Positions 36,051 to 55,472 of a stretch of 64,000 nt of DNA are shown here, one piece after another. The translations under genes and the position numbers were made by a program. The DNA is from Candidatus Kapaibacterium sp. (GTDB lineage: Bacteria > Bacteroidota > Ignavibacteria > Kapaibacteriales > UBA2268): assembly GCA_963665665.1 (NCBI GenBank), contig OY762428.1, positions 1,568,001 through 1,632,000 of the forward strand, given 5' to 3'. The notes below the pieces were generated by a model. It was not told where the DNA came from, did no database searches, and saw only the letters and a program-made list of their open reading frames with translations. The number at the start of each line of letters is the position of its first letter. Position 1 is the first letter of the stretch.

Positions 36051-36057
36051 AAATTTA

Positions 36058-37218: not shown

Positions 37219-37240
37219 TAACCAACCCGTAAAATTTAAT

Positions 37241-38044
37241 TTAAAGCCTGTATTGAACTAAGAATCTGAATTGAAAATTGGAAACAAATGATTCTTCATA
37301 TTCTTTAGAAACTTTAGGTGTGAATAGCTCGCCTCTTTCCATCGGCTTTGGATTACCATTAGGATATTTCAGTTCTTCGTCCCGAAGCAAGAGATTCATC
37401 ATACTCAATGAACCACTTATATTCAGATACCATCTTTCATAAATCCTGCCTTCAATACCGAATTTTCCAAATCCTCCCAGCCGGAATGTTGCCTCTTTCG
37501 ACGGATGAATAATTGTTGTATCATTCCTTGGTACATTATTGTAATCAATGAAAACAGTATATTCATCACCATAAACAAATGTACCCATAGCATGAAGCCC
37601 TACAAAAAGTTTTGCCTCGGCCAGCGGAAATTCAATAAATGCCCAGTCAAGCCCAAGGCTGAATGTTGAAACTGTAACTTTATGCTTCAAACTGAACTCA
37701 ACCTCGTTATTATAAGGCAATCTTTGAGCCGAACTGTAAAAATATTGGTCGAAGCCAATCGGTATTCTAAATCTTTCCTTTTTATCGAGATAAGTCATAA
37801 ATTGAAGTGCAAAACCCGGCTGCGGGCCTCCGAACCCTCCGCCAACAACATCCGATTTAGTTGAATCTCTTTCAAATACAGGCAAACGGCCGGGATTGTT
37901 TCCAAGAATTTCTATTGTGGATATTCCAAATGCAACACTAAAACGATCCTGAAACTGAGCTTTTGTGTCTAACTTAAACAAGAAGAAAAATGATACAACA
38001 ATCATAAGCAAGGATAGCGGCAATCTAATTTTATTATTATTCAT
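37241..38044 (-). CDS. Outer-membrane beta-barrel protein, unknown function
   Basis: Signal peptide, alternating amphipathic strands, C-terminal FRFLVQYRL. Confidence 0.65.
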   Translation of the reverse strand: MNNNKIRLPLSLLMIVVSFFFLFKLDTKAQFQDRFSVAFGISTIEILGNNPGRLPVFERDSTKSDVVGGGFGGPQPGFALQFMTYLDKKERFRIPIGFDQYFYSSAQRLPYNNEVEFSLKHKVTVSTFSLGLDWAFIEFPLAEAKLFVGLHAMGTFVYGDEYTVFIDYNNVPRNDTTIIHPSKEATFRLGGFGKFGIEGRIYERWYLNISGSLSMMNLLLRDEELKYPNGNPKPMERGELFTPKVSKEYEESFVSNFQFRFLVQYRL

Positions 38045-38062
38045 AAGTTTTACCCGTTGATA

Positions 38063-39240: not shown

Positions 39241-40002
39241 TTAATTTTTTATCAAATTGATTCTTTTTCTTATCATTCCGGATTTCTTTAACACTATAAT
39301 ATAAAATCCTTTATCAAGATTATTAATATTCAGATAAGAACTTTCTAATTCAACCAGGTCAGTATCAATTTTTCTGCCATTCAGGTCGAAAATATATAAA
39401 TCAACATCACTTATTTCATTTTCAAAAAATATCATATCATCCGCAATTACGGAAATATTCTCATCTATTACGTTCTTTCTATCAACGATACCTGTAGGTA
39501 CTTTATTATATTCTATTGAGATTTTAAATTTGTCGAGAAATTCATTCCCTACTTTAACCATTTTATTTTCTATCATATCAACTGTAAGAATACTACCGTC
39601 AATAGCGTCGCTTATTGTAGCATTTTTTACATAAGCCGGATCGAGATCCCATGATATTGTTATAGTATCAGCTCCGAATACAACACCAAGATAATAATCT
39701 ACTTTATATGTATCGTCATCAGGCAAAGAATCAACAGGAGCCCTAAAATCCTTATATGACAAAACGGTCGGGCTAATATAAAAAGCGCCCTGAAGCTGAC
39801 TTGGGGCAAAATTTGGAAATTCGAACTCGCCGTATACTGTATCTATTCCATCGGTAGCATCTGGCATTATTCCAAAGATACATTGCTCGAAATGATCATT
39901 ATTATTATTATCCAGAATTATCTTATTTGTTATTTCCTGGGATAAACCGAGCGACTGGCTAAGAACTATAAGCGCCGATATTGCAATTAATAATCTTTTC
40001 AT
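39241..40002 (-). CDS. Secreted protein with ATDG-type Ig-like module and T9SS-type C-terminal domain
   Basis: Signal peptide; IFG..DATDGID; YIFDLNGRKI...GFYII...LIKN. Confidence 0.75.
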   Translation of the reverse strand: MKRLLIAISALIVLSQSLGLSQEITNKIILDNNNNDHFEQCIFGIMPDATDGIDTVYGEFEFPNFAPSQLQGAFYISPTVLSYKDFRAPVDSLPDDDTYKVDYYLGVVFGADTITISWDLDPAYVKNATISDAIDGSILTVDMIENKMVKVGNEFLDKFKISIEYNKVPTGIVDRKNVIDENISVIADDMIFFENEISDVDLYIFDLNGRKIDTDLVELESSYLNINNLDKGFYIIVLKKSGMIRKRINLIKN

Positions 40003-40065
40003 CTTCTGCTCCTTTTTAACATAAATAAATATAAGAAATTTTCCGGGAGTGGCGCTACTTTTAAT

Positions 40066-40097
40066 AAAAAACGGGCAACCACTAAGGTTGCCCGTTT
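40066..40097 (-). terminator. Intrinsic terminator after the 1047-aa gene
   Basis: aaacgggcaacc/ggttgcccgttt; the U-tract follows on the minus strand. Confidence 0.85.
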
Positions 40098-40116
40098 AAA
40101 AATAAATCTTTTCAGA

Positions 40117-43100
40117 TTATTTTACAACATTGATTGTACGAACAGTTGCTTTACCATTAATGATCATCTTGGCAATGTACTGCCCTGATGTTAATGAAGC
40201 GGCATCGATCTGTACGTCTGTATATGTTCCTGCATTCCTGCTTGCATTATCGAGTAATTTTGCTACCTGGTTACCAAGTGCATCATAAAGAACGATAGTT
40301 ACATTTGCATTTTCGGGAACAGTATATTTAACAGTTGATTCTGAGCTAACCGGATTTGGATAGTTTACAAGAGCTGATTCAAGAGCATCTACTGTTTCGA
40401 TTTTAACAGAATTTGTTTTTGAGCTCGGTATAACTACAGTTCCGTTGCTGCCTTTTTCAATTGTACCATATATCTGGCCTGTTACAGGATCTGAGAATGT
40501 ATATTTTGCATCAGCATTGTGTACTGCAAATGATGCAGGATATTCAACTGCCTGAAGAAGAACTACTGATGAATTCTCTGTTGATAATTTACTGTTATTA
40601 TCAAACCTTACATCAAATAGATCTGCTGGAGGAAGAGGAGGAAGTACAAAACTGTTTGCATCAACATTCTGGTTTGAAAGATATAGAGAAGCTTCATTCT
40701 GTGAATTATCACGAAGAACAATAGCGTCTGACATTGCCATTACATCGTCTCTGTTTGATGCATAGATCTGTGATCCTGTTTTGATATTACTCATATCAAG
40801 GTTCAACCATGCACCTGCATCTACATACAGCCAGTAACCAAGTCCTGGTTCAAGTTCAGATACTTCTACATAACCACGGTTAGTTTTGTATCCATACACA
40901 CCAAGTTTCATTGATTCTGAAAGTGTTGGCCTGTTGTTATTATCAAATGCATCAAGGTCGATGTGATCAATATTAATCGGGATAGAAAGTGCACCAATTG
41001 TGTTCCATCCTTTGTAAAGCCTTACAGGATCGCCTGTAGCTTTAGAAATCTTAGAAATAAACACACCCTGGAAAGTAGTGTCAACTCTGTCTTCTGAATA
41101 TTTAACGAAGTAACCAACACCAGGCATTAATTCTTCTTCCTGCTGATAGATACTAAGTGTAAATTTAATCGGTACGTTCATTGCATTTGGATAGAATACA
41201 TTCCAGAATGAATTAGTAGGCCTTACTGGTAATGACAGAAGGTTCCAACCAGGATTAATTCTTGGTGTACCATCAGCATTTACGTAACGGATTACTTTTG
41301 GAAGTGTGTATTCAATCATAAATTCACTGTATTTAGGATCAGTGATAACATAAGACAGGCGGCCATTTGGCAGTGGAGTAGCTGAACGCATATTAACATT
41401 GAATTCCTCGCCGTTGCGTGCATCTCTCAGGAAGAGCTGTGCACCATCCGGGAAGTTCTTTGTATCCCATTCAATTGTGATAGGATAATTTTCAGCACCA
41501 CCAGCATTGAATTTCACCCAGTATGTAATTGACTGAAGTGTATCAAATGCACTTCTGATATCTCTTGAACCATATACAAGGTTGCCATTTTCGTCGCGAA
41601 CTGCAGTTCTTGGAAGCTCATCGTTAGGAGCCCAATCACCAAATCCGAAAGGTACCTGTGGCTGAATATCTGTATCTACAGGATAGAAACGTGCGCCGAA
41701 TCCCTGAAGATCATATTCATAAGCAAATTCACCAAATAGTTGATCAACACCGTCAGTAGCTCTGTGGCCTGTACCAAAGATAAGTTTACAAGAATCGCCT
41801 ACAGCACCGCGTGAGTTTCTTACTGTTAATTCGATACCTGGTTTTGAAGTAGTATTAAACCATTCTACAGGATTTCTGAAATATATAAATGTAACTTTAA
41901 TCCTTACGGGACTGTCAAGTGCATAGTCAGATCTGAAAGTGATGTAACCAGTATAAACACCGGCTTTTTCATCATCAGCCTGGATTTCATTAGGATCGCA
42001 CTGTACTTCTAAGTAAAGATCGCCTTCAGCTGTTGTAGGATCGCCATAAGGATCTCTTTCTTCACCAAGAATTGTATTGTCTAACCAGTCAATCCAACCG
42101 GATCTTGTTGGTGATGCAAAGTCAGCAGGATATTTATCAGCTGTGGAAAGCCTTCTTGCCTGAAGTTTCAACCATTTCTGATCTGTTTCTACTTCGATAT
42201 CAAGCAGCCTTGTTCTTTCAACGCCATTCATAACTCTAAGAAGCCTTGTTCCGAACAGAGGATCGAAAGAAGCGGAATCTATTGTAATCGGGTCAACGAT
42301 TTCCCATAGATTTTCTTCATCCTCAACTTTTTTGATAGCGGGAATTGAGCCAATACCTCTTTCAATTGAGAAATTGAATTCCGGAATAGCAGGTGTAATG
42401 CTCATATAAATTGAGCCTTCTTTTGTAGGTTCAATTTCACCGGCTGCATAGTCAAGGTTATTAATACCTGCAAGTCCTGTTATTTCAGTAGGTTCGTACT
42501 GTTCTGTGCCCGGAATACCTAATTTATAAAGATGTGCAAAAGGATTATCTTCTCTTACGTTAATATCATTATATTTTATTGTATCTGGTGCAAAGTGAAT
42601 TGATGGTTTTGCTACAGAACCCTGGCCGGGGTTATCTATAGACTGCATCACTTTGAAGCGTACATAAAGAAGTATCTGCCAGTCTTTTCTTCCAAGGTCA
42701 GTATTAGGAAGCGGACGTGTTGTGGAAGTACCTGTTATACGCATTGCACGGCCTCTCATCCTGTCCTGGAGAGCAGTTTCGTCAGAAAGATAAACCCTGT
42801 AACGGGAAGTATCTTTGAAGTCGTGCCAGGAAATATTAAAATGTTTTGAAAGTGGTTCCTGATCCATTTCTTCGTCCCTTGGTCCGAACTTCTGAACACC
42901 TACCGGCCTGATTGCCGATGAGTCATAAAGAAGTGTGAACTGGAAACTATAGATCGGGTCCGGAACAAATCTGTCATCGTCATATTTTGCCCACCTGTTT
43001 TCAATCCAAACAGGAACAAGAAATTCCCTGGGATGTTCGTATTTTTCTGATGTGGGAATCCAGATACGTCCGTCAGGATACCATTCTTCGTTATATCCGT

Positions 43101-43248
43101 CATCAGTACCTGTAAGAGTAAGATTGGGCACCGCAGGCTTATCAAAAGCAGCGAATGCATCCTGGCCTGTTGAAAATAAAAGGCCGATTACAAGCGCCAA
43201 GCCCATTAAGACTTTCATGCCCTGGTATTGTGATAAGAATCTCTTCAT
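40117..43248 (-). CDS. Secreted T9SS protein with N-terminal cohesin-like domain, ATDG/PPxPP modules and GWN repeats
   Basis: GGAGG upstream of MKRFLSQ; FLVPVWI..IYSFQFTLLYD..LLYVRFKV; GWNLLSLP, GWNTIG; NYPNP...YDALG...GQY...INVVK. Confidence 0.8.
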   Translation of the reverse strand: MKRFLSQYQGMKVLMGLALVIGLLFSTGQDAFAAFDKPAVPNLTLTGTDDGYNEEWYPDGRIWIPTSEKYEHPREFLVPVWIENRWAKYDDDRFVPDPIYSFQFTLLYDSSAIRPVGVQKFGPRDEEMDQEPLSKHFNISWHDFKDTSRYRVYLSDETALQDRMRGRAMRITGTSTTRPLPNTDLGRKDWQILLYVRFKVMQSIDNPGQGSVAKPSIHFAPDTIKYNDINVREDNPFAHLYKLGIPGTEQYEPTEITGLAGINNLDYAAGEIEPTKEGSIYMSITPAIPEFNFSIERGIGSIPAIKKVEDEENLWEIVDPITIDSASFDPLFGTRLLRVMNGVERTRLLDIEVETDQKWLKLQARRLSTADKYPADFASPTRSGWIDWLDNTILGEERDPYGDPTTAEGDLYLEVQCDPNEIQADDEKAGVYTGYITFRSDYALDSPVRIKVTFIYFRNPVEWFNTTSKPGIELTVRNSRGAVGDSCKLIFGTGHRATDGVDQLFGEFAYEYDLQGFGARFYPVDTDIQPQVPFGFGDWAPNDELPRTAVRDENGNLVYGSRDIRSAFDTLQSITYWVKFNAGGAENYPITIEWDTKNFPDGAQLFLRDARNGEEFNVNMRSATPLPNGRLSYVITDPKYSEFMIEYTLPKVIRYVNADGTPRINPGWNLLSLPVRPTNSFWNVFYPNAMNVPIKFTLSIYQQEEELMPGVGYFVKYSEDRVDTTFQGVFISKISKATGDPVRLYKGWNTIGALSIPINIDHIDLDAFDNNNRPTLSESMKLGVYGYKTNRGYVEVSELEPGLGYWLYVDAGAWLNLDMSNIKTGSQIYASNRDDVMAMSDAIVLRDNSQNEASLYLSNQNVDANSFVLPPLPPADLFDVRFDNNSKLSTENSSVVLLQAVEYPASFAVHNADAKYTFSDPVTGQIYGTIEKGSNGTVVIPSSKTNSVKIETVDALESALVNYPNPVSSESTVKYTVPENANVTIVLYDALGNQVAKLLDNASRNAGTYTDVQIDAASLTSGQYIAKMIINGKATVRTINVVK

Positions 43249-43282
43249 GAGAACCTCCAAAAATTAAAAAAAATATCAGTTA

Positions 43283-44491
43283 TTATTCTTTTATTAAAAC
43301 AATTCTTTTTTTCTCGTTATTTTCTGTTACAACAATTCCGAAGTATATTCCCGGTAATAATTCTGCAACATCAATTTCTATTCGGTTTTCAAATATATTG
43401 TCAATTTCTTTAATCTTATAACCCATCAAATCGTAAAAAGACGCAAATTTTATAAGATTTTTTTCATTTTTTATAATAAAACTATTTTTACCTGCACTGT
43501 ACCATGATTTAGTATCGCTTTTATTACTAATTTCAATTATATCATTACCTGTGGTATCTTTTTTTATTGATCTTAAATAAAGGTTTTCAGATGAATATCT
43601 CGTAACGCAAGAACAAAAACCTGTATTTATTGAATCAATTGTAATACCAGATAATAAACTGTCATTACTTTTTCTTTTAATATCAAATTCTAATATTGTC
43701 TGATCGCTGAAATCATTATTCTTTTGAAATCTGATCTTTTTTCCATCATCAATATCTTCAACAGACAAATTTGATATTAAATCATCTACAGTTTCAGTTT
43801 TTAAAATTTCAAAGTACGTTTTATCATAAACCAGGTTAAATTCTATCAAGTCGAGTCTTGCAATGTTTTCATCATATTGCATGTACAATTCGAACTTTTG
43901 AATCGAATCATTCCTGAAGAACAAAGAATCTGAGCTGAAACCGGCAGTTATTGCCCTGGTTTCTTTATCAACTTCCAATCCTTCGATTATCAATGTATCC
44001 TGTTTCTCTACTTCTATTTTGAATTCCTCGGTGAACTCAATATCCTCGAGATATAATCTTGTTGTATCCGGGCAATCCCCGAGAAATCTTCCGTACAAAA
44101 CAACCAAAGGTTTATTTCCGCTCGAAGGCGGAAATGAGAAATTGAAGGTTGTGGCATAGCCCTGTACTCTTCCTTCTTCAGAAATAAATGATACTTCCCT
44201 GGTTTCAAAGAACTCTGATAATGTATTTGTGTAGAGTGCTGTTATCCATTGTATTTTTTCCGGATTATAGTTTAAATAATACTGGAAACCATACAAGCTG
44301 TCGAATCTTTGCACTTCTCCGATACTCAGTGAAACATAAAACTCTTTTTTATCTGCCGAGCCGCAAACATCAATAATTTTTTGTTGTGTCAGTTCAGCTC
44401 TTACCGTTTCCTGAGATAATCCGGTCAGGCTGCTGCAAGCAAAGAGCAGCAGCCATATCCAGATTTTATATTTCAATGAACAGCTCATCAA
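43283..44491 (-). CDS. Secreted T9SS protein with two cohesin-like domains
   Basis: FYVSLSI..LYGFQYYLNYNPEKI..PLVVLYGR; FELYM..IEFNLVYDKTYF..ILEFDIK; YDLMG..PGIYF..LIK. Confidence 0.7.
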   Translation of the reverse strand: MMSCSLKYKIWIWLLLFACSSLTGLSQETVRAELTQQKIIDVCGSADKKEFYVSLSIGEVQRFDSLYGFQYYLNYNPEKIQWITALYTNTLSEFFETREVSFISEEGRVQGYATTFNFSFPPSSGNKPLVVLYGRFLGDCPDTTRLYLEDIEFTEEFKIEVEKQDTLIIEGLEVDKETRAITAGFSSDSLFFRNDSIQKFELYMQYDENIARLDLIEFNLVYDKTYFEILKTETVDDLISNLSVEDIDDGKKIRFQKNNDFSDQTILEFDIKRKSNDSLLSGITIDSINTGFCSCVTRYSSENLYLRSIKKDTTGNDIIEISNKSDTKSWYSAGKNSFIIKNEKNLIKFASFYDLMGYKIKEIDNIFENRIEIDVAELLPGIYFGIVVTENNEKKRIVLIKE

Positions 44492-46450
44492 TTACTTGTT
44501 GAGGATCATTTTCTTTGTAGCAGTGAAATCATCGCCTGTTAACCTGTAAACATATACACCGTTTGCAACAGCATTACCACTGTTGTCTACGCCATTCCAT
44601 GAGAATTTGTGTGTATCTGTAGAAAGGTTTCCGTTAACGAGAGTTTTTACAACATTACCAAACATGTCATAAATTTCAAGTTTGTAGCTTCCTGCATCTT
44701 TAATTGTTACAAAGATATCTGTGCTTGCTGTGAATGGGTTAGGATAGTTTTTGAAATTAAGACCAAAATCATTATCCTGTCCTTCAACATTTGTAAGAAG
44801 CGCAGAGAAACCATCGATATTGTTATCGTTGAATCTTGCATTTGTAACTTCTATCTGAGCATTTTCAGATTTTACTGTAACAAATAATACGGGTGTTGAT
44901 GTTTCAAATTCGCCTGTACCTGCAAATACTACAGTATTGCCTTCATGTGTTGTCTGAACATTACCGTTAACAGATACTATGTCAGCATTAAGGTCGAATT
45001 TACCTGCAAGCATACCATCAAGATAACCATTCAGGTTAACTGTCAGCATGTATTCGTTATCGCCAAGACCTTTAACTTCAGAAATATCGAAAGCAGTTGC
45101 TTCTTTTTCGTTGTTTGAGATCTTACCATATTGTTTTATCCAGTCATATATCCAGGGCAATTCAGGAACGCGGCCTGAAATATAATGCAGAATCCATGCT
45201 GCATCATATTCTGTTGCCTGGAAATAAACGCGGTTAATACTATTGATACCAACAGGAAGGTTATCTGCTACATTCATATCACGCCAGGGAATATCTTTCC
45301 TGATAATGAGTGTAGCTTCATATTCTTCACCCTCATCGTCGATGAGAGTAGTATCCACATAAGCATAGTAATAACGACCATTATGGTTAACGTCTGCGTG
45401 ATAAGCTTCTCTTCTGCGAACACTATCCAAAGGAATATTTGTAACAACGTGACGCATGATAATACGTGCATCGTTAACTGTTACAAAGCGGTTCTGAGGC
45501 ATACCATAATGTCTGTTACCATAAGCTTTAGAGAAATCAGCATCACCGTCGCCCCACCATTCGTCAATATTCAGACGTGTAAGTGCGCGGAAGAAGATTC
45601 TCTTGTCTGTACCGCCGGAAGGTGGCCAGAGGTTAGTTAGTGTAGTTTCAGTTCTTGCATACATCGGGTCGTAATCTTCATCATCCGGACCCATGAAATA
45701 AAGGCCGTTCAGGAAGTCGCCGCCAGTACCGTTAATACCTACTGAAGCATCTTTAGTAATAATTGTATTACCAGCATCCGGGTCGGGATTGCCACCAACA
45801 GGGCCATAACAGAATTCAATATTACCCTGATTTGAGAATTGGTCAGTAGATTTATAAATAACAACCTGGAAGTTTGCTACCGAAGATTTTACATGAACCA
45901 TATTACCTTCATCATCTTCCTGTTCGAAGTTAATGTTAAGGTCTTTCCATTGAACCACGAAGAAATCACCACCGTCGTAAGTAGAAATTTCTGACTCCAT
46001 AAATCCATCAAATACATCAGTTGCATTTCTGTAGTAGTGGTCTCCCCAGAATGGAGCAATTACATTACTCGGGAAAGAAGTTGCATTCTGGAAAAGAGCA
46101 GTAGGATCGTCAGGAGCTACGAAAGGAGGTGTAGTTCCCTGCCTTGTGAATGCAATGAAACCATTAATGTTTACCCATACCTGGTTGTAAACTTCACTAT
46201 TATATTCGAACTGGAACGGAAGAGGAATTGCCTGGTGATAATATCCGTTCCTGCGGTCTTCCCTGAAACTGGGCGGAAGCCCGAAGTCCTCAGAAGGCAG
46301 TACATCAGGATATTCGAGGAATTGGAAAGGAGCATTTTCCCTTACAATTACCGTATCGAATTCGCTGTATACCTGCGCTTCAGCTTGCTGTGACAGGAAT
46401 GTTACTCCTAAGATCACAATCCCTACAGCAAAGATTAAGAAACGTTTCAT
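44492..46450 (-). CDS. Secreted T9SS protein with NIDO-like domain and dockerin-like domain
   Basis: IPLPFQF..VNINGFIAF..IAPFWGD..FQVVIY; GDAD..VTVNDARIIMRH / ADVNHNG..ATEYDAAWILHY; NYPNPF..WNG.D..G..VANGVYVYRL. Confidence 0.78.
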   Translation of the reverse strand: MKRFLIFAVGIVILGVTFLSQQAEAQVYSEFDTVIVRENAPFQFLEYPDVLPSEDFGLPPSFREDRRNGYYHQAIPLPFQFEYNSEVYNQVWVNINGFIAFTRQGTTPPFVAPDDPTALFQNATSFPSNVIAPFWGDHYYRNATDVFDGFMESEISTYDGGDFFVVQWKDLNINFEQEDDEGNMVHVKSSVANFQVVIYKSTDQFSNQGNIEFCYGPVGGNPDPDAGNTIITKDASVGINGTGGDFLNGLYFMGPDDEDYDPMYARTETTLTNLWPPSGGTDKRIFFRALTRLNIDEWWGDGDADFSKAYGNRHYGMPQNRFVTVNDARIIMRHVVTNIPLDSVRRREAYHADVNHNGRYYYAYVDTTLIDDEGEEYEATLIIRKDIPWRDMNVADNLPVGINSINRVYFQATEYDAAWILHYISGRVPELPWIYDWIKQYGKISNNEKEATAFDISEVKGLGDNEYMLTVNLNGYLDGMLAGKFDLNADIVSVNGNVQTTHEGNTVVFAGTGEFETSTPVLFVTVKSENAQIEVTNARFNDNNIDGFSALLTNVEGQDNDFGLNFKNYPNPFTASTDIFVTIKDAGSYKLEIYDMFGNVVKTLVNGNLSTDTHKFSWNGVDNSGNAVANGVYVYRLTGDDFTATKKMILNK

Positions 46451-46498
46451 TTGTGAACTCCAATTATATTTAAAAATATTTATTTCCGATTTATAATT

Positions 46499-46520
46499 GG
46501 CAGGCCATTGAAGGCCTGCC
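46499..46520 (-). other. Intra-operon stem-loop after the giant gene
   Basis: ggcaggcc-6nt-ggcctgcc; no U-tract on the coding (minus) strand. Confidence 0.6.
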
Positions 46521-46537
46521 TATTTTTATCAGATATT

Positions 46538-49500
46538 TTACTTCACAATTACCAGAGGCATTGTTGAAGTAGTACCATTTGCTGTAAGTCTTACTACATA
46601 AGAACCGCTTGAGAGAGCTTTGCCATCAAGGTCGTTTGCTTTCCAAACAATGTTATGTGTTCCAGCTTCGTAATATGAGTCTGCAAGTGTTGCAACTTTA
46701 TTACCGAGAGCATCGAATACATCAAGAGCAATTTTGCCAGATCTTGGAATCTGGAATCCAACAGTTACATCGCCAGTGTTGCTGTACGGGTTCGGTGATA
46801 CCGAATTAACTTTGGCAACAGTTGGTAATCCAACCTGAGTTTCTACCGGTGTTGTCCAGTCATAGATAATCAGGAAGGCATCGATTTCATTCTGTTTGAT
46901 GCTCAATACTGTGTATTCACCATCTTCAGTAAGTTCAATATAAGAGGCGATATTAGGATCGTTATAGTTTGGATCTCTCATATCTACTCTGAATATATTA
47001 CCGTTTGACTGTGCATCTTTAAGATACCATGAACCACCAGAAGGATTAACCTCGTTATTGTCCATCGGAGGAATCTGAGATTTTTTCCATTTCAGTGTTA
47101 CAGGATATGCAGGTGATGTCTGACCATTTTCTCCACCAGCCTGGAATGATGCTCTGTATACATAAGTACCTTCCTGGCCAGGAGCCTGTGGGAATACGCT
47201 TATAAGTGTACCATTCCTTGTAGGAATTGTCCAGCGAGCGTCAAATACGTCAAGCGGAGGAAGTGGAGGAAGATCATACTCGCAATAGTTTGAATCAAGC
47301 ATACCAAGCGGGTTGCCATCATCAGCATCGCCAGTTGAAGCGTTACGTGCTGCAGTACCCCATGTCAATGTTTCCATTGCACCAAGGTGGTTTTCGATAA
47401 TAATATCGCAAAGGAAGTCTGCTTCTTCCATAAGTTTCAGCCTGAACGGAAGCTCTTTTTCAGCTCCGTCTTTGTCTGTTACTTTTATTATAATAGTTAC
47501 TTTACCGTCAGCATCTCTCGAAAGTGCTGATGGATCTGTAATTGTTACAGATACTTTTACAGTGTCAAGATCAAGCGGACCATTGATAGTTGTCGGATCG
47601 AGTGTTACTCCTGCTGAAGGTTCTACTACTGTAAGTGTAAGAACTTCATTTTCACCATCAACTCTGCGGAGAAGATCAAGATCGCTTACAAGCAATGTAT
47701 CGTTATAAACTCTGTCGTCAGCATTGAATTTTGCACTTTCAATACATTTAACGATAGGAGCCTGGTCAATATCAGGATCGTGGTTTGTTTTCAGTACTCT
47801 GAGAGGAATCTGCTTAACATAAGTCAAGTCATCTTCGTCTCGTACAAGTACAGTTACCAGTTCGTCCTGAGGAGCTACTTCGTTATCTGCCTTAAGCATC
47901 GGTTTTCCATAAAGAAGACCGCTTTCTTTATTTATCTTAAGCCAGTCAGGAGTTGTTTTCATATTTGAAACATCCCAAACGCCAGCTTCCGGGAAGCACG
48001 GATCTTTCTGAATTTCATCCTGCGGATAATCTTCATAGATCAATTCATATTCGTGCCATTGGCCGAAGTTAGGATCGTAAACTGAGATAGCTCTTGTTGT
48101 ATCATCAAGGCCAGGATTATAATCAATATCTTCCTCTGCGTCAGGAAGTGACTGAGTTATAATTTCAGGCTGAATATTGATAAATACAGGCATATCCATG
48201 TAGTTCACTCCACCATGACCGTCATTTACAACAACTGTAAATACTGTATCAGTGTTGAGTTTGTTATTAACCTGTTTTGAAGGAGTAAGAAGCTCAATTG
48301 CTTCATCTCTGTCAATACGAATGTCAAGTTTACCCCAAGTCTGGAACTGAGCGCCAAATGTATCTGATGCAGGATCGGTTACACCATCACCATATTCATG
48401 CAGATATTCATTAGCCATCCAAACAGGCCTTGTCTGAGTGATAGTTGTATCGTTTTCACGACCATCACCATCATTATCATAAATTGTGCTGTCGATAACA
48501 ACATCATCTTCGCCAGCGCGAACTGCAATGTTCATAAAGCCATAAGCTGTACGTCCGTAGCGGAAGTCCCAGCCACTTGCCCATGAATCTTCAAGCTCAT
48601 CATCTGTATTAAAGTCAACTTTAAAGCGAAGTTTATCTGTAAGGTTTGCCATTAATGTACCATCTTCGTCTGAACGACGGCAAGGATAAAGTGAAGGCAT
48701 ATATGTACCAACAACTTCTCTTGTTCCTGCCATATCAACTCTTCTTGTTACTTCTTCTTCTGATTCATCAGGACCAATGAAGCGAGGAGTTGAATCTACA
48801 ACAATAATACGGAATGCATAGTCGCCAGTATGGTAACCGTTCTGGCCAACATAGTCAATTGTATCCTGCTGCAGATAGCGTGCTTCCATATCCTGATATG
48901 CAGGAGCTGAAAGATAAGGCCTGAAGAGCTCGATAAATTTAGCAATATATTCATCGCTTGGCCTTAAGCTGTCCGGAAGAGCTTTAAGAGAATCAAGAGT
49001 TCTGTAATAAGGAGGATAGCTCATACCTTTAACGTTAATCCACTCGCCGCCAGGTACTACGAACGGGTTCATAGGCTGACCACGGAACAAGATGTAACCG
49101 TCTGCATCATCTCTTGGAAGCTGATATGAGTTTTCCCAATCTGTATTGTTTTCAGATGCTACTGTATCAACGAGAATCCAGTGTTCAAGTGCTGTATTCG
49201 GGTTGTACTGTCCGTGTCTCGGATCTGTAGGATCGTATGTCGGATGCCATTCATAAGTAAGGAATGAATACAATTCAGGATACATCTGTGATCTTGGATC
49301 ATAGTACTGATTTGTATCCATAGCTGTAATTGTAAGAATAGAATCACGTCCTGCAGCATCATCACCAATATTAGGATCATCAGGATCGCTGTAGAAACCT
49401 TCTTCAACAGGATAATACCTGTTTTCAGTAAGGAATATTGTATTAAGTAATGAAGTCATTACAAGTGTATCAAGCTGTTTGCCCGGAACTTCCGATGGAA

Positions 49501-52500
49501 CGATCTTTGTAACTGAAGCTGTATCGTCACGAAGTTTAAGAACGTTACCTGTAAATGTCGGAGGATCAACATTGCGAACAACCTTGAATGAAATACCATC
49601 GTCATAAGCCGGGATAACGCCTTCTCTCCAGAGAACTGTACGAGAGATCACTCTAACAACATCGCCGGTATCAACCGGAAGTGCTGTGAAACGTTCACCA
49701 GCGTAGAATGTTGCCTGGTTGTTATTATCAACTGGCATTGCAAAGTTACCGTTATCATCCCTGTTCGAGAAGAGATCGCTTACATTACCAAATGAGTAAT
49801 AAGGATTATCATAGCGTCTTCCTTCGAGAGTAGCTTCGTCTTCACTGTAAGGATCGTTAGCTAACTGACGGAGGAGATATTCGCCTGTACCAAGGTTAAT
49901 AAGGCCTTCAGCTGTACGGCGGATAAGAGAGTTAGGATTCCTGTTAGTAGAATCAGGAACAAGTTCAACTCTCGCACGGAATATTTCACGATAAGGAGCT
50001 TCATTGTGAACCTGGTTAAAGTTAACGCGAATGAAGTCACCAGTTGTTTCATTGATTACGAAGAATACTGATTCGTTAAGTGTTCTCGGGTCGAAGTTGG
50101 ACCTTTCAGCAACACCATCATAATCAACCATTGATTCAAGATACAGCGGATAACCAATCGGATGGATCATTTCGCCGTTTTTATTAGCGCGGAACTCATC
50201 CTGAAGCTGAGCAATAGCAGGGTATTTTAATGCGCCTGTGCTATCAATTTCTTCAGCTACGAAAGGATCGCGTGTATAACGTTTTACATATTTACCGTTT
50301 GAAGGCATAAGGGCATCTTCGAATCTTTTAACGATCGGAGGAATACCAACTGCAAAGTCTTCAATCGGGCTCATTCTGCGTTTTGAGTAATCAGCAGTTT
50401 TAATGTCTGTACCTTTGTCATAAATGTCGTAGATACGACCTGACTGAAGAACTGCATCAGGAATTGATCCTGCTTCAGGAGTATTTTCATTACCACTGAT
50501 GTTCTTCATAGGTATTGCTGTATAAGTATATTGGCCATTCTTTTCAAACGGACCCTGATCGCGGAGATCGCTGGATGAGTTGTATTTCAGCCAGAGATTG
50601 TTATTTCCGTCAGTGTCAACAAAGAATGTATGCTGAATAGCGCCATTATAACCAAAGCTGTTTTCAATTACGATGTCAACATTTGCTTCTGTACGGCCCC
50701 AATAGTTACCGCGAAGTGTATCTGTTCCGCCATAGCCAATACCGGTTGTTCCTGCAAGAACGCCTTTTGTATTAGGAGCATCAGGAAGCCTGATAAGGAA
50801 GCGGGCATCGTTATCATAAATTGAGTTAGCTGCTTCTGAGTAAATTGCATTCGGAAGCGGACCCTGAACTTCACCATAAATGATAGAGCCTGCAAGATCG
50901 CTGGATGCAAAGTTTGTTGTAATATCGTTTGTATTTTCATCTCTTACGATAGGACCGGTAATAGCATTTTGTTCCATACCGATTTCTGATTCTGCAATGT
51001 TTCCGGCAACAAGTGACCTGTTAAGGATAAGTTTAAGGTCAAAGTTGTCTGAGTAAATTGCAGCGCCGGAGAATGATTTATTGTCCTGCATTCTTACGCG
51101 GTTGAACCAAACTGAGTCAACACGTCCGATTCTGTTAACAGTTACACTGTCCAGAATATAAAGAGCACCACCAAGGCCTACACCATTTTCAGGAAGCATG
51201 ATTTCCTGGTGAAGGCGAACAACGTCAGTGTGGCTTTCGTCAACAGGCCTGAGGTCGTTCCATGTAGCGCCTGCGTCAGTTGTTGATTTAACAAGTCCTG
51301 CATCGCCAACTATATAACCATTGCTTGTTGTCGGGAAGAATACATCATATAAGTTATAATCTGTTTCTGCATCAAGTTCTGTCCATGTGTCGCCACCGTC
51401 TTCTGTTTTGTAAAGTGTACCGTAAGTACCTGTTACATAACCAGTGTTCTGTGAAGTGAAGAAACATGAATAAAGGTCATCATTAATACCAAGATCAATA
51501 ACTGACCATGTCTGGCCGCCGTTTTCTGTTTTTACAACAAGGCCGGCATTACCAGTGATATAACCAACGTTAGCATCAACGAATGCAATGTGGTTAAGTT
51601 TAACAATAACTGAAGGAATGAACTGTACATCCCATGTAGCGCCACCATCGTCAGTAACAAGGATAAGGCCTCTTTCGCCTACTGCATATCCCCTGTTAAC
51701 GCCTGTGAAGAATACACCAAGAAGGTCTGCATCTTCGGGGCGTGTATAAGTCCATGTAGCACCGCCATTGATTGTTTTAAGAATATAACCATCGTCACAT
51801 ACAGCATAACCTGTGTTTGTGCCGATGAAGAACAGGTCGTTTACAGCTTTCTGAATAGGAGTTGTAAGTTCTTCCCAGCTGCTTCCGCCGTTTTCTGTTT
51901 TCAGGATAACGCCCATTGCATCGGGCCTGCCTGTAACACCACCAACAGCGTATCCAACATCTGAACTTGTGAATACAACATCATTAAGTCTGTAATTTGT
52001 ACCTGAAGTCTGATATGTCCAGTTTACACCGCCGTTTGTAAGTTTGGCAATTTTTCCGCCATAACCAACAACGTAACCGGTATTGTTATCAAGCCAGGTT
52101 GTAGCATAGAAGTTGCTTGTTCCAACGAGTGTACCTTTACCAATCTGTGTTGTACCGGAACCGCTCTGAGAAGCAAGAATTTCGTCGTCAACTTCAATTA
52201 CGTTGCCGAGGAATCTTGTAAGCATTCTCTGGTCAGCAGGATAAGGAACTTCTTCGAATGTAAATACATCGTCGTTTGACATAAAGTCATAAGCTACGCC
52301 ATTCTCGTCATACATAACATGGTCAAGGTCTGACAAGAAGAAACGTTTTGTAGTTGCGAACGGGTTAACCATACATACGGCAGCACCGTTAGCATTATAA
52401 AGCATGTTTTCACGGAATTCAACGCCTTTAACAACGTTAAGGTCAGCATTGATAGTATAGATAGCAGCACCACCGCGAATTTCCGGTTTGTTAGCATCTA

Positions 52501-54670
52501 AAATACCTTCACCAACAACGTTTTCGTTAAATTCAGCTCTGATGATTTGAATCATTCTCTCGTGCGGAGGTTTGATTTCAATATCAGCAGGAATAGCAAC
52601 CATTAAAGCACCACCGGCATAACCGGCTGTATTTTCATGGAAACGAACCGGATATTTACCACCATAACCAATAAGGTTATCTGCAGCAACACCACCGGCA
52701 CCGTTTATCGACATATTTCTTTTTGTAAGTACAGCGCCACCCCAGCTAAGAGCTTCGTTTTCATCAAAGTAGATATTGAAGCCGTAATCGCGTGTCTGAA
52801 CGCCGGCATCACTACCACCAATGATCGGTGACATTTTAGGATCTGTATTACCATCAACATAGATAGCACCACCGGCGCCTGCTACGTTCTGGTAGAATTT
52901 TGTCTGGTTGTTAAGGTCTTCCCTTGTGGGGCCACCTCTTACCTGAAGACGGCCAAGAGTATTTTCTTCAAAGATAGCGCCACCCATTGAGTAGTAACCG
53001 CTATTCTGTCCTGAAGCATCGTCTTCAAGGAATTTAGTATATGTTTTGTTATGGCTGAATTCGCCGGCAACAATCATGGAAGTGTAACGGCCAAGATAAA
53101 TGGCACCACCGCGAGCACCTTTTGTGCTTGCAGCATCCTGATAGTTTTCAGCAAAGTTGCCAATGGCATGGAAAGTATCTTCATCATCAAATACTTCAAT
53201 GTTGCCATCAATTTTAATACTGTTGTTCAAACCGAATGCAACTTCGATCTGCCTGTCTTCTGCACCTTCACGGCCTGCTATATAAATAGCACCGCCATAA
53301 GCACAGTCACCATAAAGCTGAGGATAATCTGCCGGATTATCGTAATCCTGCTCAACTACCTGGAAACCACCCTGATTTGTAAATATAATGTTTACAAGCT
53401 CAACTTTATTCTGGTTAAATTTAAGATTACGGATACGGCCAAGATAAACAGCAAGCCTACCGTCGTCATAAGCCTGACGGTCGTAATCTGACATTGGTTC
53501 TTCCATACCCGGTTCATCGATCATATCGATTTTCAGTATGGGGTTATTTCTTACTATACATGAAATATTACCGTCTTTATCAGTAATATTCGGGTTTTTA
53601 TCAGCATCATAGTAGCCAACAGCCTGATCTGACATCGGGAAACCTGCGGGAGCCTGAAGAATATTCAGAGCACCACCGCGATAGCGTGCAGTATTATTTG
53701 AGAATTCACAACCAAGGAGCCAAAGCCTTGATGAGAATGTTGTAATAGCACCACCGGAACCGTTAGATGCCATCACCATCCTGCGATTAAGATCGCGAAC
53801 TTCATCCCAGGTATAACCGGGGAAATCAGCCTGTGAATAATAATCAGTACGATCTACCATAGTATCCTTGCGGAAACCTTCGAATGAACAGTTCCTGAAG
53901 AAAGCTGCCCTTGCACCAGGTAGAACAACGATATGTCCCCATTCCCTTGAAAAATCATTTGTCGGCTGGCCGATAAATGTAATTCTTTCAGGACCGAAAG
54001 GAACTGTACCGTAGTTTTCTCTTTGCCAGGGATTGATAGTCAGGTTGATATCATCATTAATATCTTTGTTCATTCTGGCTGCTTTGAACATAATAGCCTG
54101 TTCGAAGCTGATAACAGCTTCATTTTCATCAAGTGGATACATTACAGCGCCGGGATGTTCCAGATCGCGGATAGTTCTGTCGTCCAAATCAAGGATAACA
54201 TTATAAACGTAATCATATTTGTCTTCGTGAACTGTAATGTCTCTTGCAGTTTCCACACCAATAGTCGAAACAGTTCTGCTTGTTTCTGACTGGTATAGGA
54301 AATAGTCAAGGTCTGAATAGCCGGCCCAACCATAAGGGTTAGCCGATGAACCCGGAGCGGCAACTGGATCGATGTTGTCCGGATTTTGTGTGTAAGTTGC
54401 TTCGGCAAAACCGTCGGCGATTACTCTACCTCCGGCTGCAACAACGAGCTTACCTAACGGGTTGAATAAAACTTCCGTACCCGGTTCAATGATAAGCGTA
54501 CCTTTTACTGTGTATGCCCTGTCAATAACATAAGTTGAGTCTTTGACAAAGATACGGACATGCCCGGATTCAGTTTCCCCGGACACATACACCTGGTCGG
54601 CTTGCCCGGTATTATAACCGAAAATGGCAAGTATAAACGCCAGGATGCTCAAACGAAAAAATCGTTGCAT
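46538..54670 (-). CDS. About 2710-aa secreted T9SS protein: Pmp-like beta-helix with inserted BNR/YCF48-type propeller and Ig/cadherin-like stalk
   Basis: GGAGG upstream of MQRFF signal peptide; many GGA(I/L/V) and FxxN motifs; seven T.(N/D)GG..W-like blades; PDWLKINKESGLLYGKP; PNP...FDALG...SGSY..RL...LVIVK. Confidence 0.85.
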   Translation of the reverse strand: MQRFFRLSILAFILAIFGYNTGQADQVYVSGETESGHVRIFVKDSTYVIDRAYTVKGTLIIEPGTEVLFNPLGKLVVAAGGRVIADGFAEATYTQNPDNIDPVAAPGSSANPYGWAGYSDLDYFLYQSETSRTVSTIGVETARDITVHEDKYDYVYNVILDLDDRTIRDLEHPGAVMYPLDENEAVISFEQAIMFKAARMNKDINDDINLTINPWQRENYGTVPFGPERITFIGQPTNDFSREWGHIVVLPGARAAFFRNCSFEGFRKDTMVDRTDYYSQADFPGYTWDEVRDLNRRMVMASNGSGGAITTFSSRLWLLGCEFSNNTARYRGGALNILQAPAGFPMSDQAVGYYDADKNPNITDKDGNISCIVRNNPILKIDMIDEPGMEEPMSDYDRQAYDDGRLAVYLGRIRNLKFNQNKVELVNIIFTNQGGFQVVEQDYDNPADYPQLYGDCAYGGAIYIAGREGAEDRQIEVAFGLNNSIKIDGNIEVFDDEDTFHAIGNFAENYQDAASTKGARGGAIYLGRYTSMIVAGEFSHNKTYTKFLEDDASGQNSGYYSMGGAIFEENTLGRLQVRGGPTREDLNNQTKFYQNVAGAGGAIYVDGNTDPKMSPIIGGSDAGVQTRDYGFNIYFDENEALSWGGAVLTKRNMSINGAGGVAADNLIGYGGKYPVRFHENTAGYAGGALMVAIPADIEIKPPHERMIQIIRAEFNENVVGEGILDANKPEIRGGAAIYTINADLNVVKGVEFRENMLYNANGAAVCMVNPFATTKRFFLSDLDHVMYDENGVAYDFMSNDDVFTFEEVPYPADQRMLTRFLGNVIEVDDEILASQSGSGTTQIGKGTLVGTSNFYATTWLDNNTGYVVGYGGKIAKLTNGGVNWTYQTSGTNYRLNDVVFTSSDVGYAVGGVTGRPDAMGVILKTENGGSSWEELTTPIQKAVNDLFFIGTNTGYAVCDDGYILKTINGGATWTYTRPEDADLLGVFFTGVNRGYAVGERGLILVTDDGGATWDVQFIPSVIVKLNHIAFVDANVGYITGNAGLVVKTENGGQTWSVIDLGINDDLYSCFFTSQNTGYVTGTYGTLYKTEDGGDTWTELDAETDYNLYDVFFPTTSNGYIVGDAGLVKSTTDAGATWNDLRPVDESHTDVVRLHQEIMLPENGVGLGGALYILDSVTVNRIGRVDSVWFNRVRMQDNKSFSGAAIYSDNFDLKLILNRSLVAGNIAESEIGMEQNAITGPIVRDENTNDITTNFASSDLAGSIIYGEVQGPLPNAIYSEAANSIYDNDARFLIRLPDAPNTKGVLAGTTGIGYGGTDTLRGNYWGRTEANVDIVIENSFGYNGAIQHTFFVDTDGNNNLWLKYNSSSDLRDQGPFEKNGQYTYTAIPMKNISGNENTPEAGSIPDAVLQSGRIYDIYDKGTDIKTADYSKRRMSPIEDFAVGIPPIVKRFEDALMPSNGKYVKRYTRDPFVAEEIDSTGALKYPAIAQLQDEFRANKNGEMIHPIGYPLYLESMVDYDGVAERSNFDPRTLNESVFFVINETTGDFIRVNFNQVHNEAPYREIFRARVELVPDSTNRNPNSLIRRTAEGLINLGTGEYLLRQLANDPYSEDEATLEGRRYDNPYYSFGNVSDLFSNRDDNGNFAMPVDNNNQATFYAGERFTALPVDTGDVVRVISRTVLWREGVIPAYDDGISFKVVRNVDPPTFTGNVLKLRDDTASVTKIVPSEVPGKQLDTLVMTSLLNTIFLTENRYYPVEEGFYSDPDDPNIGDDAAGRDSILTITAMDTNQYYDPRSQMYPELYSFLTYEWHPTYDPTDPRHGQYNPNTALEHWILVDTVASENNTDWENSYQLPRDDADGYILFRGQPMNPFVVPGGEWINVKGMSYPPYYRTLDSLKALPDSLRPSDEYIAKFIELFRPYLSAPAYQDMEARYLQQDTIDYVGQNGYHTGDYAFRIIVVDSTPRFIGPDESEEEVTRRVDMAGTREVVGTYMPSLYPCRRSDEDGTLMANLTDKLRFKVDFNTDDELEDSWASGWDFRYGRTAYGFMNIAVRAGEDDVVIDSTIYDNDGDGRENDTTITQTRPVWMANEYLHEYGDGVTDPASDTFGAQFQTWGKLDIRIDRDEAIELLTPSKQVNNKLNTDTVFTVVVNDGHGGVNYMDMPVFINIQPEIITQSLPDAEEDIDYNPGLDDTTRAISVYDPNFGQWHEYELIYEDYPQDEIQKDPCFPEAGVWDVSNMKTTPDWLKINKESGLLYGKPMLKADNEVAPQDELVTVLVRDEDDLTYVKQIPLRVLKTNHDPDIDQAPIVKCIESAKFNADDRVYNDTLLVSDLDLLRRVDGENEVLTLTVVEPSAGVTLDPTTINGPLDLDTVKVSVTITDPSALSRDADGKVTIIIKVTDKDGAEKELPFRLKLMEEADFLCDIIIENHLGAMETLTWGTAARNASTGDADDGNPLGMLDSNYCEYDLPPLPPLDVFDARWTIPTRNGTLISVFPQAPGQEGTYVYRASFQAGGENGQTSPAYPVTLKWKKSQIPPMDNNEVNPSGGSWYLKDAQSNGNIFRVDMRDPNYNDPNIASYIELTEDGEYTVLSIKQNEIDAFLIIYDWTTPVETQVGLPTVAKVNSVSPNPYSNTGDVTVGFQIPRSGKIALDVFDALGNKVATLADSYYEAGTHNIVWKANDLDGKALSSGSYVVRLTANGTTSTMPLVIVK

Positions 54671-54752
54671 AGTACCTCCAATGAATAAATACCTGTTATT
54701 TATCAAAAAATCTATTGTTTTCTCCATAAAAAAATTCATTTCAAATCTATGA

Positions 54753-55472
54753 TTATTCAATTATCGTGCCAATACGAACCAGTCCTGTCTTAGCTTTTCC
54801 GCTAAATTCGGATAAGCCTGACTCGTCAATAATTTTTCTATAAAGTTCTTCTGCTTTTTCTTTATCGCCGGCTTTTTCGTAATTCCTTCCGGCATAATAC
54901 TGATACCTTACTTTCGAAGAAGATTCGGATGCAGTATTTGCAGCATCTTCGTAATGGCCGGCAGCTTCTTTATAATTTTTATCAGCTTCAGCACAAACGC
55001 CAAGGCCGGCATGAGCGCCAATCAGAACCAATTTTGATTCCGAATCCATAGCGTTTTCAAAATATGATCTTGCTTCTGAATATTTGCCAAGTTCCACATA
55101 AGCATTTGCAGCATAAAGGGCTGCTGTTTTTCCCGGCTCCACACCTGAATATTTATTTGCAATGGCAGTTAATCCTAATATAGACTGTCCCCTTACCTTT
55201 TTATTAGGATCGCCGTTAATAGCCAGCTCATATTGTCCCTGATTATAATAATTGAGTATCCTGGAAAGTTCTGTGGTAGCTTCCTTCTGCTCGTCTGCCT
55301 GGGCACTTCTCATGTAAAACATACCAAGAACAATAATAATTACAGCCCCAAATCCAATAACAAAATGTTTCCAATATTTCTGTACGAACTCTAACGATTG
55401 TTCAGCGGAATTTTCTCCCGACTTTTCTCCATTTTCTTGTGTCATTTTTTTATTGTTTTCCATTTTTTTCAA
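54753..55472 (-). CDS. Membrane-anchored TPR protein (YfgM-like)
   Basis: Single TM followed by TPR motifs (YAANAYVELGKY, AGLGVCAE, YAGRNYEKAGD). Confidence 0.8.
   Translation of the reverse strand: MKKMENNKKMTQENGEKSGENSAEQSLEFVQKYWKHFVIGFGAVIIIVLGMFYMRSAQADEQKEATTELSRILNYYNQGQYELAINGDPNKKVRGQSILGLTAIANKYSGVEPGKTAALYAANAYVELGKYSEARSYFENAMDSESKLVLIGAHAGLGVCAEADKNYKEAAGHYEDAANTASESSSKVRYQYYAGRNYEKAGDKEKAEELYRKIIDESGLSEFSGKAKTGLVRIGTIIE

Follow-up and report, generated by a model that had tools for sequence, protein, structure and literature searches.

Predicted diverged dockerin and cohesin folds in a conserved, enzyme-free cluster of putative type IX secretion cargo genes from Kapabacteria-type Bacteroidota

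Cohesin–dockerin pairs are understood almost only as builders of cellulosomes, and their numerous non-cellulosomal relatives have no assigned role; what would such modules do in a gene cluster that encodes no recognisable enzyme? The question is raised by a 64,000-nucleotide stretch of the genome of Candidatus Kapaibacterium sp. (contig OY762428.1, positions 1,568,001 to 1,632,000 of the forward strand), hereafter the window, within which all coordinates are counted from its first letter. An initial annotation, made from the letters alone, had proposed a co-oriented block of five genes whose products are exported by a secretion system of type IX (T9SS) and assemble on the cell surface through cohesins and a dockerin. 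Five consecutive co-oriented open reading frames (ORFs) do occupy the minus strand at 39241–54760 (2740, 652, 402, 1047 and 253 codons, 5' to 3'); we call the product of the largest the giant and refer to the others by their lengths in amino acids (aa). On balance, we lean towards the reading that a diverged dockerin in the 652-aa protein and a diverged cohesin in the 402-aa protein clip this T9SS cargo into a fixed, enzyme-free surface complex.

The 652-aa protein has 388 database relatives, and an AlphaFold 2 model of it built with 38 relatives reached a mean predicted local distance difference test score (pLDDT) of 84.6. We compared models with 48,161 representative Protein Data Bank (PDB) chains without preselection, in a fold search independent of Foldseek. 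Residues 295–433 matched the dockerins 4fl4_A (Z 8.4, root-mean-square deviation (rmsd) 1.9, 67/68 residues, 25% identity) and 5m2o_B (Z 8.3, rmsd 2.3, 70/74 residues, 31% identity), with about 65 residues of the range being insertions. Dockerins carry an F-hand calcium loop in duplicate, in which positions 1, 3 and 5 are D or N and position 12 is D. In a register that is our reading against this pattern, loop 1 of the module is D301-x-D303-x-D305 ... D327 and loop 2 is D353-x-N355-x-N357-G ... D416, with insertions of ~15 residues in the first and ~35–55 in the second. Across the alignment of the 38 relatives, D301, D303, D327, D353 and D416 are each present in 38/38; position 305 is D in 33 and N in 5, position 355 is N in 37 and D in one, and position 357 is N in 35 and D in three, while both dockerin helices are invariant or nearly so. 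As modelled, residues 295–433 are a real, highly diverged dockerin fold, and the dockerin-like module of the initial annotation stands on both the fold match and the conserved loops. Because the ligand residues of the loops are conserved, the module is probably calcium-dependent. Within the loop 2 insertion, the window's own dockerin has an extra 16-residue piece (residues 368–383, 45301–45348) found in 4–10 of the 38 relatives.

N-terminal to the dockerin, the protein carries a NIDO-like domain. The Pfam family NIDO (PF06119) matched 5 of the 38 relatives weakly (best E 1.7e-4) and did not match the window's own protein at E<=10; in the Atlas, 20 of the 30 named matches of the N-terminus were NIDO clusters (score 0.94–0.95, 182–188 shared features). 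Both lines agree with the NIDO-like assignment made initially.

The proposed socket is module 1 of the 402-aa protein (residues 46–177). In the same 48,161-chain search, all 11 single-domain matches among its top 50 were cohesins (Z 10.0–11.5, rmsd 2.2–3.5, 113–125 residues aligned), among them the archaeal non-cellulosomal cohesin 2xdh (Z 10.0), and a second structural comparison of the 402-aa model returned more than 20 cohesin entries. The pLDDT of this region is ~62–77, and as modelled it is a real, highly diverged cohesin fold. Module 2 (residues 178–295) matched cohesin 2vo8_A at Z 9.9, effectively tied with immunoglobulin (Ig) domains of Gram-positive pilins and adhesins at Z 8.0–9.1, and may be either a cohesin or a pilin-type Ig domain. 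Thus, of the tandem double cohesin that had been proposed for this protein, module 1 holds, with cohesins as its sole single-domain matches in the top 50, and module 2 is left in a tie. The module boundaries first drawn by eye (residues 46–173 and 191–303 of the 402-aa protein, 299–423 of the 652-aa protein) fall within a few residues of the structural ranges. Profile–profile alignment of the 402-aa and 652-aa families by hhalign joined their C-terminal domains (CTDs) only.

Weaker hints of a cohesin come from the N-terminal module of the 1047-aa protein (residues 40–279). Pfam Cohesin matched 2 of 32 relatives (best E 0.0082, weak), the profile of the module found cohesin 4dh2_A as the sole match in the PDB (E 0.28, weak), and cohesin clusters made up 14 of its 30 Atlas matches (score 0.92, weak). 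Aligned by hhalign with the 402-aa family, it gave a probability of 0.9% over just a 21-column motif.

Whatever the modules bind, no enzyme was recognised in the five proteins. Searches of all five against Pfam and NCBIfam returned no glycoside hydrolase or other catalytic family. The giant contains Chlam_PMP repeats of the Pmp-type beta-helix, matched in four overlapping pieces (best E 3e-11), a BNR/Ycf48-like beta-propeller, for which one piece matched PSII_BNR at E 7.8e-34, and an Ig region with a weak Pfam match to He_PIG, the same beta-helix/propeller/Ig make-up as first described; its regions 1–350 and 1350–2250 had no family match in the piecewise scan. The solved chains closest to the propeller are non-catalytic Ycf48 proteins (E 5.5e-19), with no hydrolase among the matches. 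The absence of a recognisable carbohydrate-active enzyme (CAZyme), noted from the start, is therefore repeated in these family and structure searches. The dockerin type is also single-copy, a custom hidden Markov model (HMM) of it finding one ORF in the whole genome, and of 51 candidate longer proteins none scored for such a dockerin at E<=0.001, which is weak evidence.

These results bear on another reading, a cellulosome-like complex that degrades polymers. Cohesin and dockerin folds do exist in the cluster, BNR propellers occur in some glycosidases, and one weak NCBIfam match, at 42.1 bits where the cut-off is 175, is to the F510_1955 glycosylhydrolase. With no catalytic family in the five proteins, Ycf48 as the propeller's kin, a single-copy dockerin and, as weaker evidence, no longer carriers, we give that reading almost no credence. 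The lack of an enzyme domain together with the single-copy dockerin points instead to a fixed structural complex, and the single copy together with the lack of longer carriers suggests a dedicated pair rather than a tagging system.

The genome is not otherwise free of such modules. Whole-genome scans gave 3 Dockerin_1 and 11 Cohesin matches, none of them in the five genes. Within the window, a 496-aa ORF (60880–62370, plus strand) looks like a small cohesin–dockerin–cohesin–CTD protein, with canonical-looking loops near residues 183 and 240 (weak Dockerin_1 E 0.06, Cohesin E 0.056; TIGR04183 E 0.002). Elsewhere, other large ORFs (1250–2106 aa; C1: 220760, 437617, 2445385–2445906, 2462006) have Pfam-level cohesin or dockerin matches, three of them above cut-offs and one, of 2043 aa, with both modules; the organism thus appears to have further, less diverged cohesin and dockerin proteins.

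The initial annotation had named a gene order that is not conserved as one of the findings that would count against it. When one genome per species was scanned, 176 stretches contained a relative of the 652-aa protein, and 80 loci were kept; the window's proteins were compared with these by tblastn, each gene being counted where the flanking DNA sufficed (loci with room) and matches confined to the CTD being ignored. The order held. A tetratricopeptide repeat (TPR) gene upstream of the cluster was found in 65/65 loci, the giant in 66/66 (orthologues 43–56% identical) and the 1047-aa gene in 63/63. The 402-aa gene was found in 70/73 loci by tblastn and, because a profile recovered it in two of the three loci seemingly without it (E 9e-55), in 72/73. 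For the 253-aa gene the tblastn count was 41/60; in 14 of the 19 loci without a match, a gap of 926–1339 bases lies between the matches to the 1047-aa gene and a downstream glycosyltransferase family 2 (GT2) gene. In 36/57 loci the five cargo genes were all detected in the same order, a count kept down by how far the 253-aa gene has diverged. Since the gene order recurs in related loci, the neighbourhood is not a chance one. In the window, the stop codon of the 652-aa gene and the start codon of the 402-aa gene lie side by side with zero gap, and 22 bases separate the 402-aa and 1047-aa genes.

An earlier impression that the 402-aa gene is rare came from a word-indexed homologue search that returned 7 relatives; it was rejected once tblastn and profile searches had found the gene in nearly all loci, the word-indexed search being insensitive.

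The cluster is conserved in order across the whole order of Kapabacteria-type Bacteroidota to which the window belongs. Among 401 genomes sampled from the phylum, full-length matches to the 652-aa protein (E<=1e-100) came from 20 of the 22 genomes belonging to this order; elsewhere in the class 2 of 76 had one, both from a single family. For the remaining 302 phylum genomes, none of the best matches listed was full-length (best listed, 4.4e-26), and 127 of these genomes had no match at E<=1e-10; the weaker matches outside the order cover the C-terminal part only. Within the cluster, mean pairwise identity is highest for the dockerin (58.8%) and lowest for module 2 of the 402-aa protein (16.8%), with module 1 of the latter at 32.6%.

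All five products look like T9SS type A cargo. Inspected by eye, each N-terminus has a charged start, a hydrophobic core and small residues before the presumed cleavage site, and all five look signal-peptide-like. The T9SS CTD model TIGR04183 (cut-off 23 bits) scores the giant at 26.6, the 652-aa protein at 44.9, the 1047-aa protein at 30.5 and the 253-aa protein at 24.8 bits. The giant's CTD falls below the Pfam Por_Secre_tail cut-off (20.5 bits), and the CTD of the 652-aa protein (residues 562–652) superposes on that of PorU (Z 11.4). For the 402-aa protein, TIGR04183 (17.2 bits) and the Pfam CTD score are both below cut-off; in its predicted model, the last 78 residues superpose on the CTD of RemA (8gl6_D; Z 11.9, rmsd 1.6, 76/76 residues). 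The T9SS-type CTD proposed for every product is accordingly supported by HMM for four proteins and by structure for the fifth, and the proposed signal peptides are consistent with the look of the N-termini. The secretion machinery is encoded in the same genome (one contig, 5.46 Mb), with PorU (NF033707, 853 bits, cut-off 420) and SprA (TIGR04189, 957 bits, cut-off 200). Its T9SS secretome is very large: 374 ORFs are CTD candidates, and of the 150 scored, all 150 exceeded the TIGR04183 cut-off.

Gliding motility also comes to mind, since the cluster sets a giant, repetitive T9SS cargo protein beside accessory proteins from neighbouring genes. SprB and RemA are gliding cargo of Flavobacteria, and the superposition of the 402-aa CTD on that of RemA would suit a gliding-adhesin set of this kind, the giant being the protein moved along the surface. 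No GldJ was found above cut-off (best 30.5 bits against 458) in this single-contig, 99.5% complete genome, and the idea was set aside. The CTDs are moreover of type A, and identities of 43–56% over 2700 residues across the order seem unlike those of fast-evolving adhesins. We therefore rate a gliding set as very improbable.

Does the dockerin bind cohesin module 1? We predicted a complex of three chains (the dockerin partner, residues 28–300 of the 402-aa protein and the 1047-aa N-terminus) with custom alignments, a set-up unlike that of the tool's calibration. The score was 0.40 (runs 0.40, 0.46, 0.37) against 0.00 for the best of three controls; the runs agreed in at least 47% of contacts, with a partner pLDDT of at least 72. 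In the calibration, the pass mark was reached by 116/157 solved complexes and 2/215 mismatched pairs, and the passes at or below 0.60 comprised 18 of the 157 solved complexes and both mismatches. Replacing just the 402-aa chain, with the 1047-aa N-terminus left in place, brought the score down to 0.00 and the pLDDT of the dockerin to 33, so the predicted contact depends on the 402-aa protein. This prediction weakly supports a dockerin–402-aa complex.

An exploratory analysis of covariation, based on module distance matrices from 34 loci and the window, points in the same direction. With giant residues 1351–2650 as the control, the dockerin's top partial correlation was with module 1 of the 402-aa protein (0.35; 0/2000 permutations, a count that overstates the case because related genomes are not independent), followed by the giant propeller (0.23), the ATDG module described below (0.18), its own NIDO-like domain (0.13) and others at or below 0.05. 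The relation was reciprocal, module 1 having the dockerin as its best partner in turn. Together, the two in silico analyses lend the proposed cohesin–dockerin binding weak support.

Several observations weigh against this reading, the relatedness of the genomes just mentioned among them. With the GT9 gene as the control, the dockerin's top partner was the C-terminal part of the giant (0.69), ahead of module 1 (0.65). The complex score falls in the weak-pass range of the tool, and the prediction model might be recalling solved cohesin–dockerin complexes. Sequence models do not see the modules: in Pfam none of the five proteins matches Cohesin or Dockerin_1 at E<=10, and none does in NCBIfam at E<=1. 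Dockerin_1 (PF00404) matches neither the 652-aa protein at E<=10 nor any of its 38 relatives at E<=0.1, and Cohesin (PF00963) has no match in the 402-aa protein at E<=10. Nor did phmmer or family-profile searches, run with the 402-aa and 652-aa proteins against PDB chains, find a cohesin or dockerin; they returned just FlgD-like and CTD chains. The 402-aa model, with a mean pLDDT of 60 from 7 sequences in its alignment, is of moderate confidence. In one locus (L056, 10499–10659), the slot of the 402-aa gene is a 160-base gap and no full-length copy was found in the assembly, and the dockerin is intact. A simple co-evolving pair does not explain why the plug is so much better conserved than its proposed socket. 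Finally, each of the five proteins has a CTD anchor of its own, so a plug and socket are unneeded for retention at the surface.

Several of these points—the separate anchors, the modules unrecognised by sequence models, the weak-range complex score, the dockerin retained in L056 and the very unequal conservation—would be expected if the five were co-located but independent T9SS surface proteins, adhesins or coat components in which the cohesin and dockerin folds persist by descent as structural or calcium-stabilising modules, their mutual binding lost, and which are clustered only for co-regulation or co-secretion. Set against this are the invariance or near-invariance of the calcium-loop residues and helices in what is the cluster's best-conserved module, the loss of the complex score when the 402-aa chain alone is replaced, the mutual best covariation of dockerin and module 1 under one control, and the abutting genes. 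We take independent proteins to be unlikely, without dismissing them.

The dockerin could also act inside the 652-aa protein itself, or from one copy of that protein to another, by clasping the adjacent beta-sandwich (residues 450–553) or by stabilising the NIDO-like domain. The sandwich has cohesin 1ohz_A (Z 8.0, 103 residues) among its tied matches, Foldseek placed the cohesin–FN3 pair 2w1n at the top for the whole 652-aa model, and L056 lacks the 402-aa gene as a partner. The same sandwich ties equally with CLIPPER (Z 8.5) and with a carbohydrate-binding module (CBM; 3ndy_E, Z 8.0), its mean pairwise identity is 33.6%, its residual covariation with the dockerin is near nil (partial r 0.01), and the dockerin's pLDDT drops once the 402-aa chain is removed. 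A self-clasp of this kind seems improbable to us.

Under the favoured reading, in which the dockerin and module 1 bind, the cluster would work as follows. The five enzyme-free cargo proteins would be exported by the type IX system and, after export and CTD processing, each would be held on the outer membrane via its CTD, as is established for T9SS type A cargo. Calcium-dependent docking of the 652-aa protein's dockerin in cohesin module 1 (402-aa protein) would join the products in a single fixed heteromeric assembly at the surface, in which the 652-aa protein would serve as adaptor and the giant and the 1047-aa and 253-aa pair would face outwards. Its function would be that of a constitutive coat or adhesive layer, structural rather than enzymatic. 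A more specific proposal, which we hold as tentative and on the doubtful side, is an enzyme-free "structural cellulosome": a lineage-defining, self-assembling, T9SS-anchored coat or appendage in which a mini scaffoldin, the 402-aa protein, would do the anchoring and the 652-aa protein would be an adaptor plugged into it via the dockerin and holding the giant via the NIDO-like domain. In the exploratory covariation analysis, the NIDO-like domain (45575–46369) covaries most with giant residues 60–900 (52061–54580; partial r 0.54 with the C-terminal part of the giant as the control), a hint of a possible further contact, between the 652-aa protein and the giant.

How would such a complex relate to known systems? 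The type I cohesin–dockerin pairs of clostridial and ruminococcal cellulosomes (1ohz, 4fl4, 5m2o, 4uyp, 2vn5) share the cohesin sandwich and the two-segment dockerin of calcium loops and helices, and the proposed mechanism, a calcium-dependent plug in a socket, would be the same. In contrast to those pairs, no enzyme carries the dockerin here, there is one dockerin of the type per genome, both calcium loops are split by insertions, neither Pfam family model matches, and the host is a diderm in which T9SS would provide the anchoring in place of S-layer homology (SLH) domains or sortase. Non-cellulosomal cohesin- and dockerin-like modules were reportedly treated by Peer et al. 2009. Examples from Archaeoglobus (2xdh) and C. 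perfringens (2vo8, 2w1n) likewise stand outside cellulose degradation, with unassigned or non-enzymatic roles; the modules described here differ from them in belonging to a set of five clustered genes conserved as a unit across an entire order and in being too diverged for family models. In its general description, the cluster also resembles the surface layer of Tannerella forsythia, whose TfsA and TfsB are large, non-enzymatic T9SS type A cargo encoded side by side; adjacent cargo genes and a proposed constitutive surface layer are common to both, and we know of no cohesin or dockerin modules in TfsA or TfsB.

A precedent for T9SS anchoring is a cellulosome-like complex predicted from genomes of Candidatus Stygibacter (Cloacimonadota; PMC8542988). 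It shares with the present cluster a diderm host of the Fibrobacteres–Chlorobi–Bacteroidetes (FCB) group and a scaffoldin-like cohesin protein with a T9SS CTD, and differs in having dockerins on GH18, GH57 and peptidase enzymes and a 3,755-aa scaffoldin whose tandem cohesins and CBMs are recognisable by InterPro (PMC8542988). Compared with that complex, the present cluster lacks enzymes and has a single dockerin, its cohesin folds, one or two in number, being those of the 402-aa protein. The literature searched, which mostly does not extend to subscription journals, held no description of the cluster, and among the papers listed there none joined Kapabacteria with cohesin, or the lineage with cohesin, dockerin or type IX modules together. 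Kapabacteria and type IX secretion meet in a hot-spring CAZyme survey that names Kapabacteria once, and Ignavibacteria and dockerin in isolated single mentions of the module. The suggestion that the assembly is plausibly undescribed thus holds, within that literature, for the cluster itself and needs narrowing for its parts, since non-cellulosomal modules and T9SS-anchored cohesin scaffoldins in FCB-group metagenome-assembled genomes are already in print.

The features of the cluster and its surroundings are collected in Table 1. The giant's ORF opens at a TTG, 30 codons before an ATG that precedes a typical signal-peptide sequence, MQRFFRLSILAFILAIFGYNTGQA, and this ATG is the likely true start. 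The ATDG module, first noticed in the 253-aa protein, recurs in the 1047-aa protein (BLASTP, 39% identity over 64 residues, E 6e-5). The 1047-aa protein has 176 library representatives at E<=1e-30. Its residues ~560–1047 (40117–41580) form a module common to many multi-domain proteins, for which we have no family name and in which conserved GWN...LP and G.GYW motifs recur; many of the 2562 library representatives of the whole protein at E<=1e-10 align to residues 560–1047 only.

Table 1. Features in and around the five-gene cluster (window coordinates; functional labels are predictions)
Feature	Position	Strand	Basis or remark
Giant T9SS cargo gene	46538..54670	-	2710 aa from ATG 54670; ORF opens at TTG 54760 (2740 aa)
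Giant, Pmp-type beta-helix repeats (residues ~350-900 of the 2740-aa frame)	52061..53713	-	Pfam Chlam_PMP
Giant, BNR/Ycf48-like beta-propeller (residues ~950-1350)	50711..51913	-	Pfam PSII_BNR
Giant, T9SS type A CTD	46553..46798	-	TIGR04183
652-aa adaptor-like protein gene	44492..46450	-	signal peptide, NIDO-like domain, dockerin, beta-sandwich, CTD
652-aa, NIDO-like domain (residues 28-292)	45575..46369	-	Pfam NIDO in relatives; Atlas features
652-aa, dockerin-fold module (residues 295-435)	45146..45568	-	two interrupted F-hand loops; structure search
652-aa, beta-sandwich (residues 450-553)	44792..45103	-	tied structural matches
652-aa, T9SS CTD	44495..44767	-	TIGR04183; PorU CTD superposition
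402-aa protein gene	43283..44491	-	cohesin, second beta-sandwich, CTD
402-aa, cohesin-fold module 1 (residues 46-177)	43961..44356	-	structure search
402-aa, module 2, cohesin-like or Ig-like (residues 178-295)	43607..43960	-	tied structural matches
402-aa, T9SS CTD	43286..43519	-	RemA CTD structural match; HMMs below cut-off
1047-aa T9SS cargo gene	40117..43260	-	ORF; orthologues in other loci
1047-aa, N-terminal module, possible cohesin (residues 40-279)	42424..43143	-	weak matches
1047-aa, ATDG module (residues ~481-660)	41281..41820	-	common to 253-aa protein
253-aa T9SS cargo gene	39241..40002	-	ATDG module and CTD
Terminator-like hairpin between 1047-aa and 253-aa genes	40069..40097	-	strong; 12-pair stem, 7 G-C pairs, T run; pattern match
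Second terminator-like hairpin, after GT9 gene	36057-36094		pattern match
TPR protein gene	54753..55472	-	upstream of cluster; Pfam TPR families
GT2 (ArnC-like), 267-aa protein and GT9 (heptosyltransferase-like) genes	36130..39184	-	downstream of cluster; maybe a separate transcript

Behind the cluster, three genes follow in ~85% of loci, those of GT2 (51/59 loci with room), a 267-aa protein (51/59) and GT9 (48/57). The GT2 protein resembles an ArnC-like polyprenyl-phosphate sugar transferase, scoring 227 bits, below the family cut-off, and a link of the GT2 and GT9 genes to glycosylation of the cargo or to lipopolysaccharide (LPS) anchoring is possible. The two hairpins, one between the 1047-aa and 253-aa genes and one behind GT9, suggest that these sugar-transferase genes need not share a transcript with the cluster. 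A scan for promoter patterns gave 72 sites where 59.7 were expected, an uninformative result. Of the 8 sequencing runs listed, 6, from 3 studies, contain this stretch, and no RNA run containing it was among them.

For a module pair known chiefly from cellulosomes, the cluster offers a clean test case, with one plug, one or two sockets, no enzymes, a fixed gene order and type IX export. If dockerin and cohesin do bind, T9SS cargo would be open to wiring into surface structures of defined, heteromeric make-up, and the family HMMs would be blind to an entire branch of such modules, in this case one with both calcium loops interrupted by insertions. Should the doubtful proposal of a structural cellulosome prove true, it would give a non-cellulosomal cohesin–dockerin pair its first defined physiological role and add a new mode of arranging T9SS cargo at the surface of a diderm. 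For the Kapabacteria themselves, a surface complex so conserved, and probably abundant, would serve as both a marker and a handle, through antibodies and cryo-electron tomography, for the study of these organisms in enrichments.

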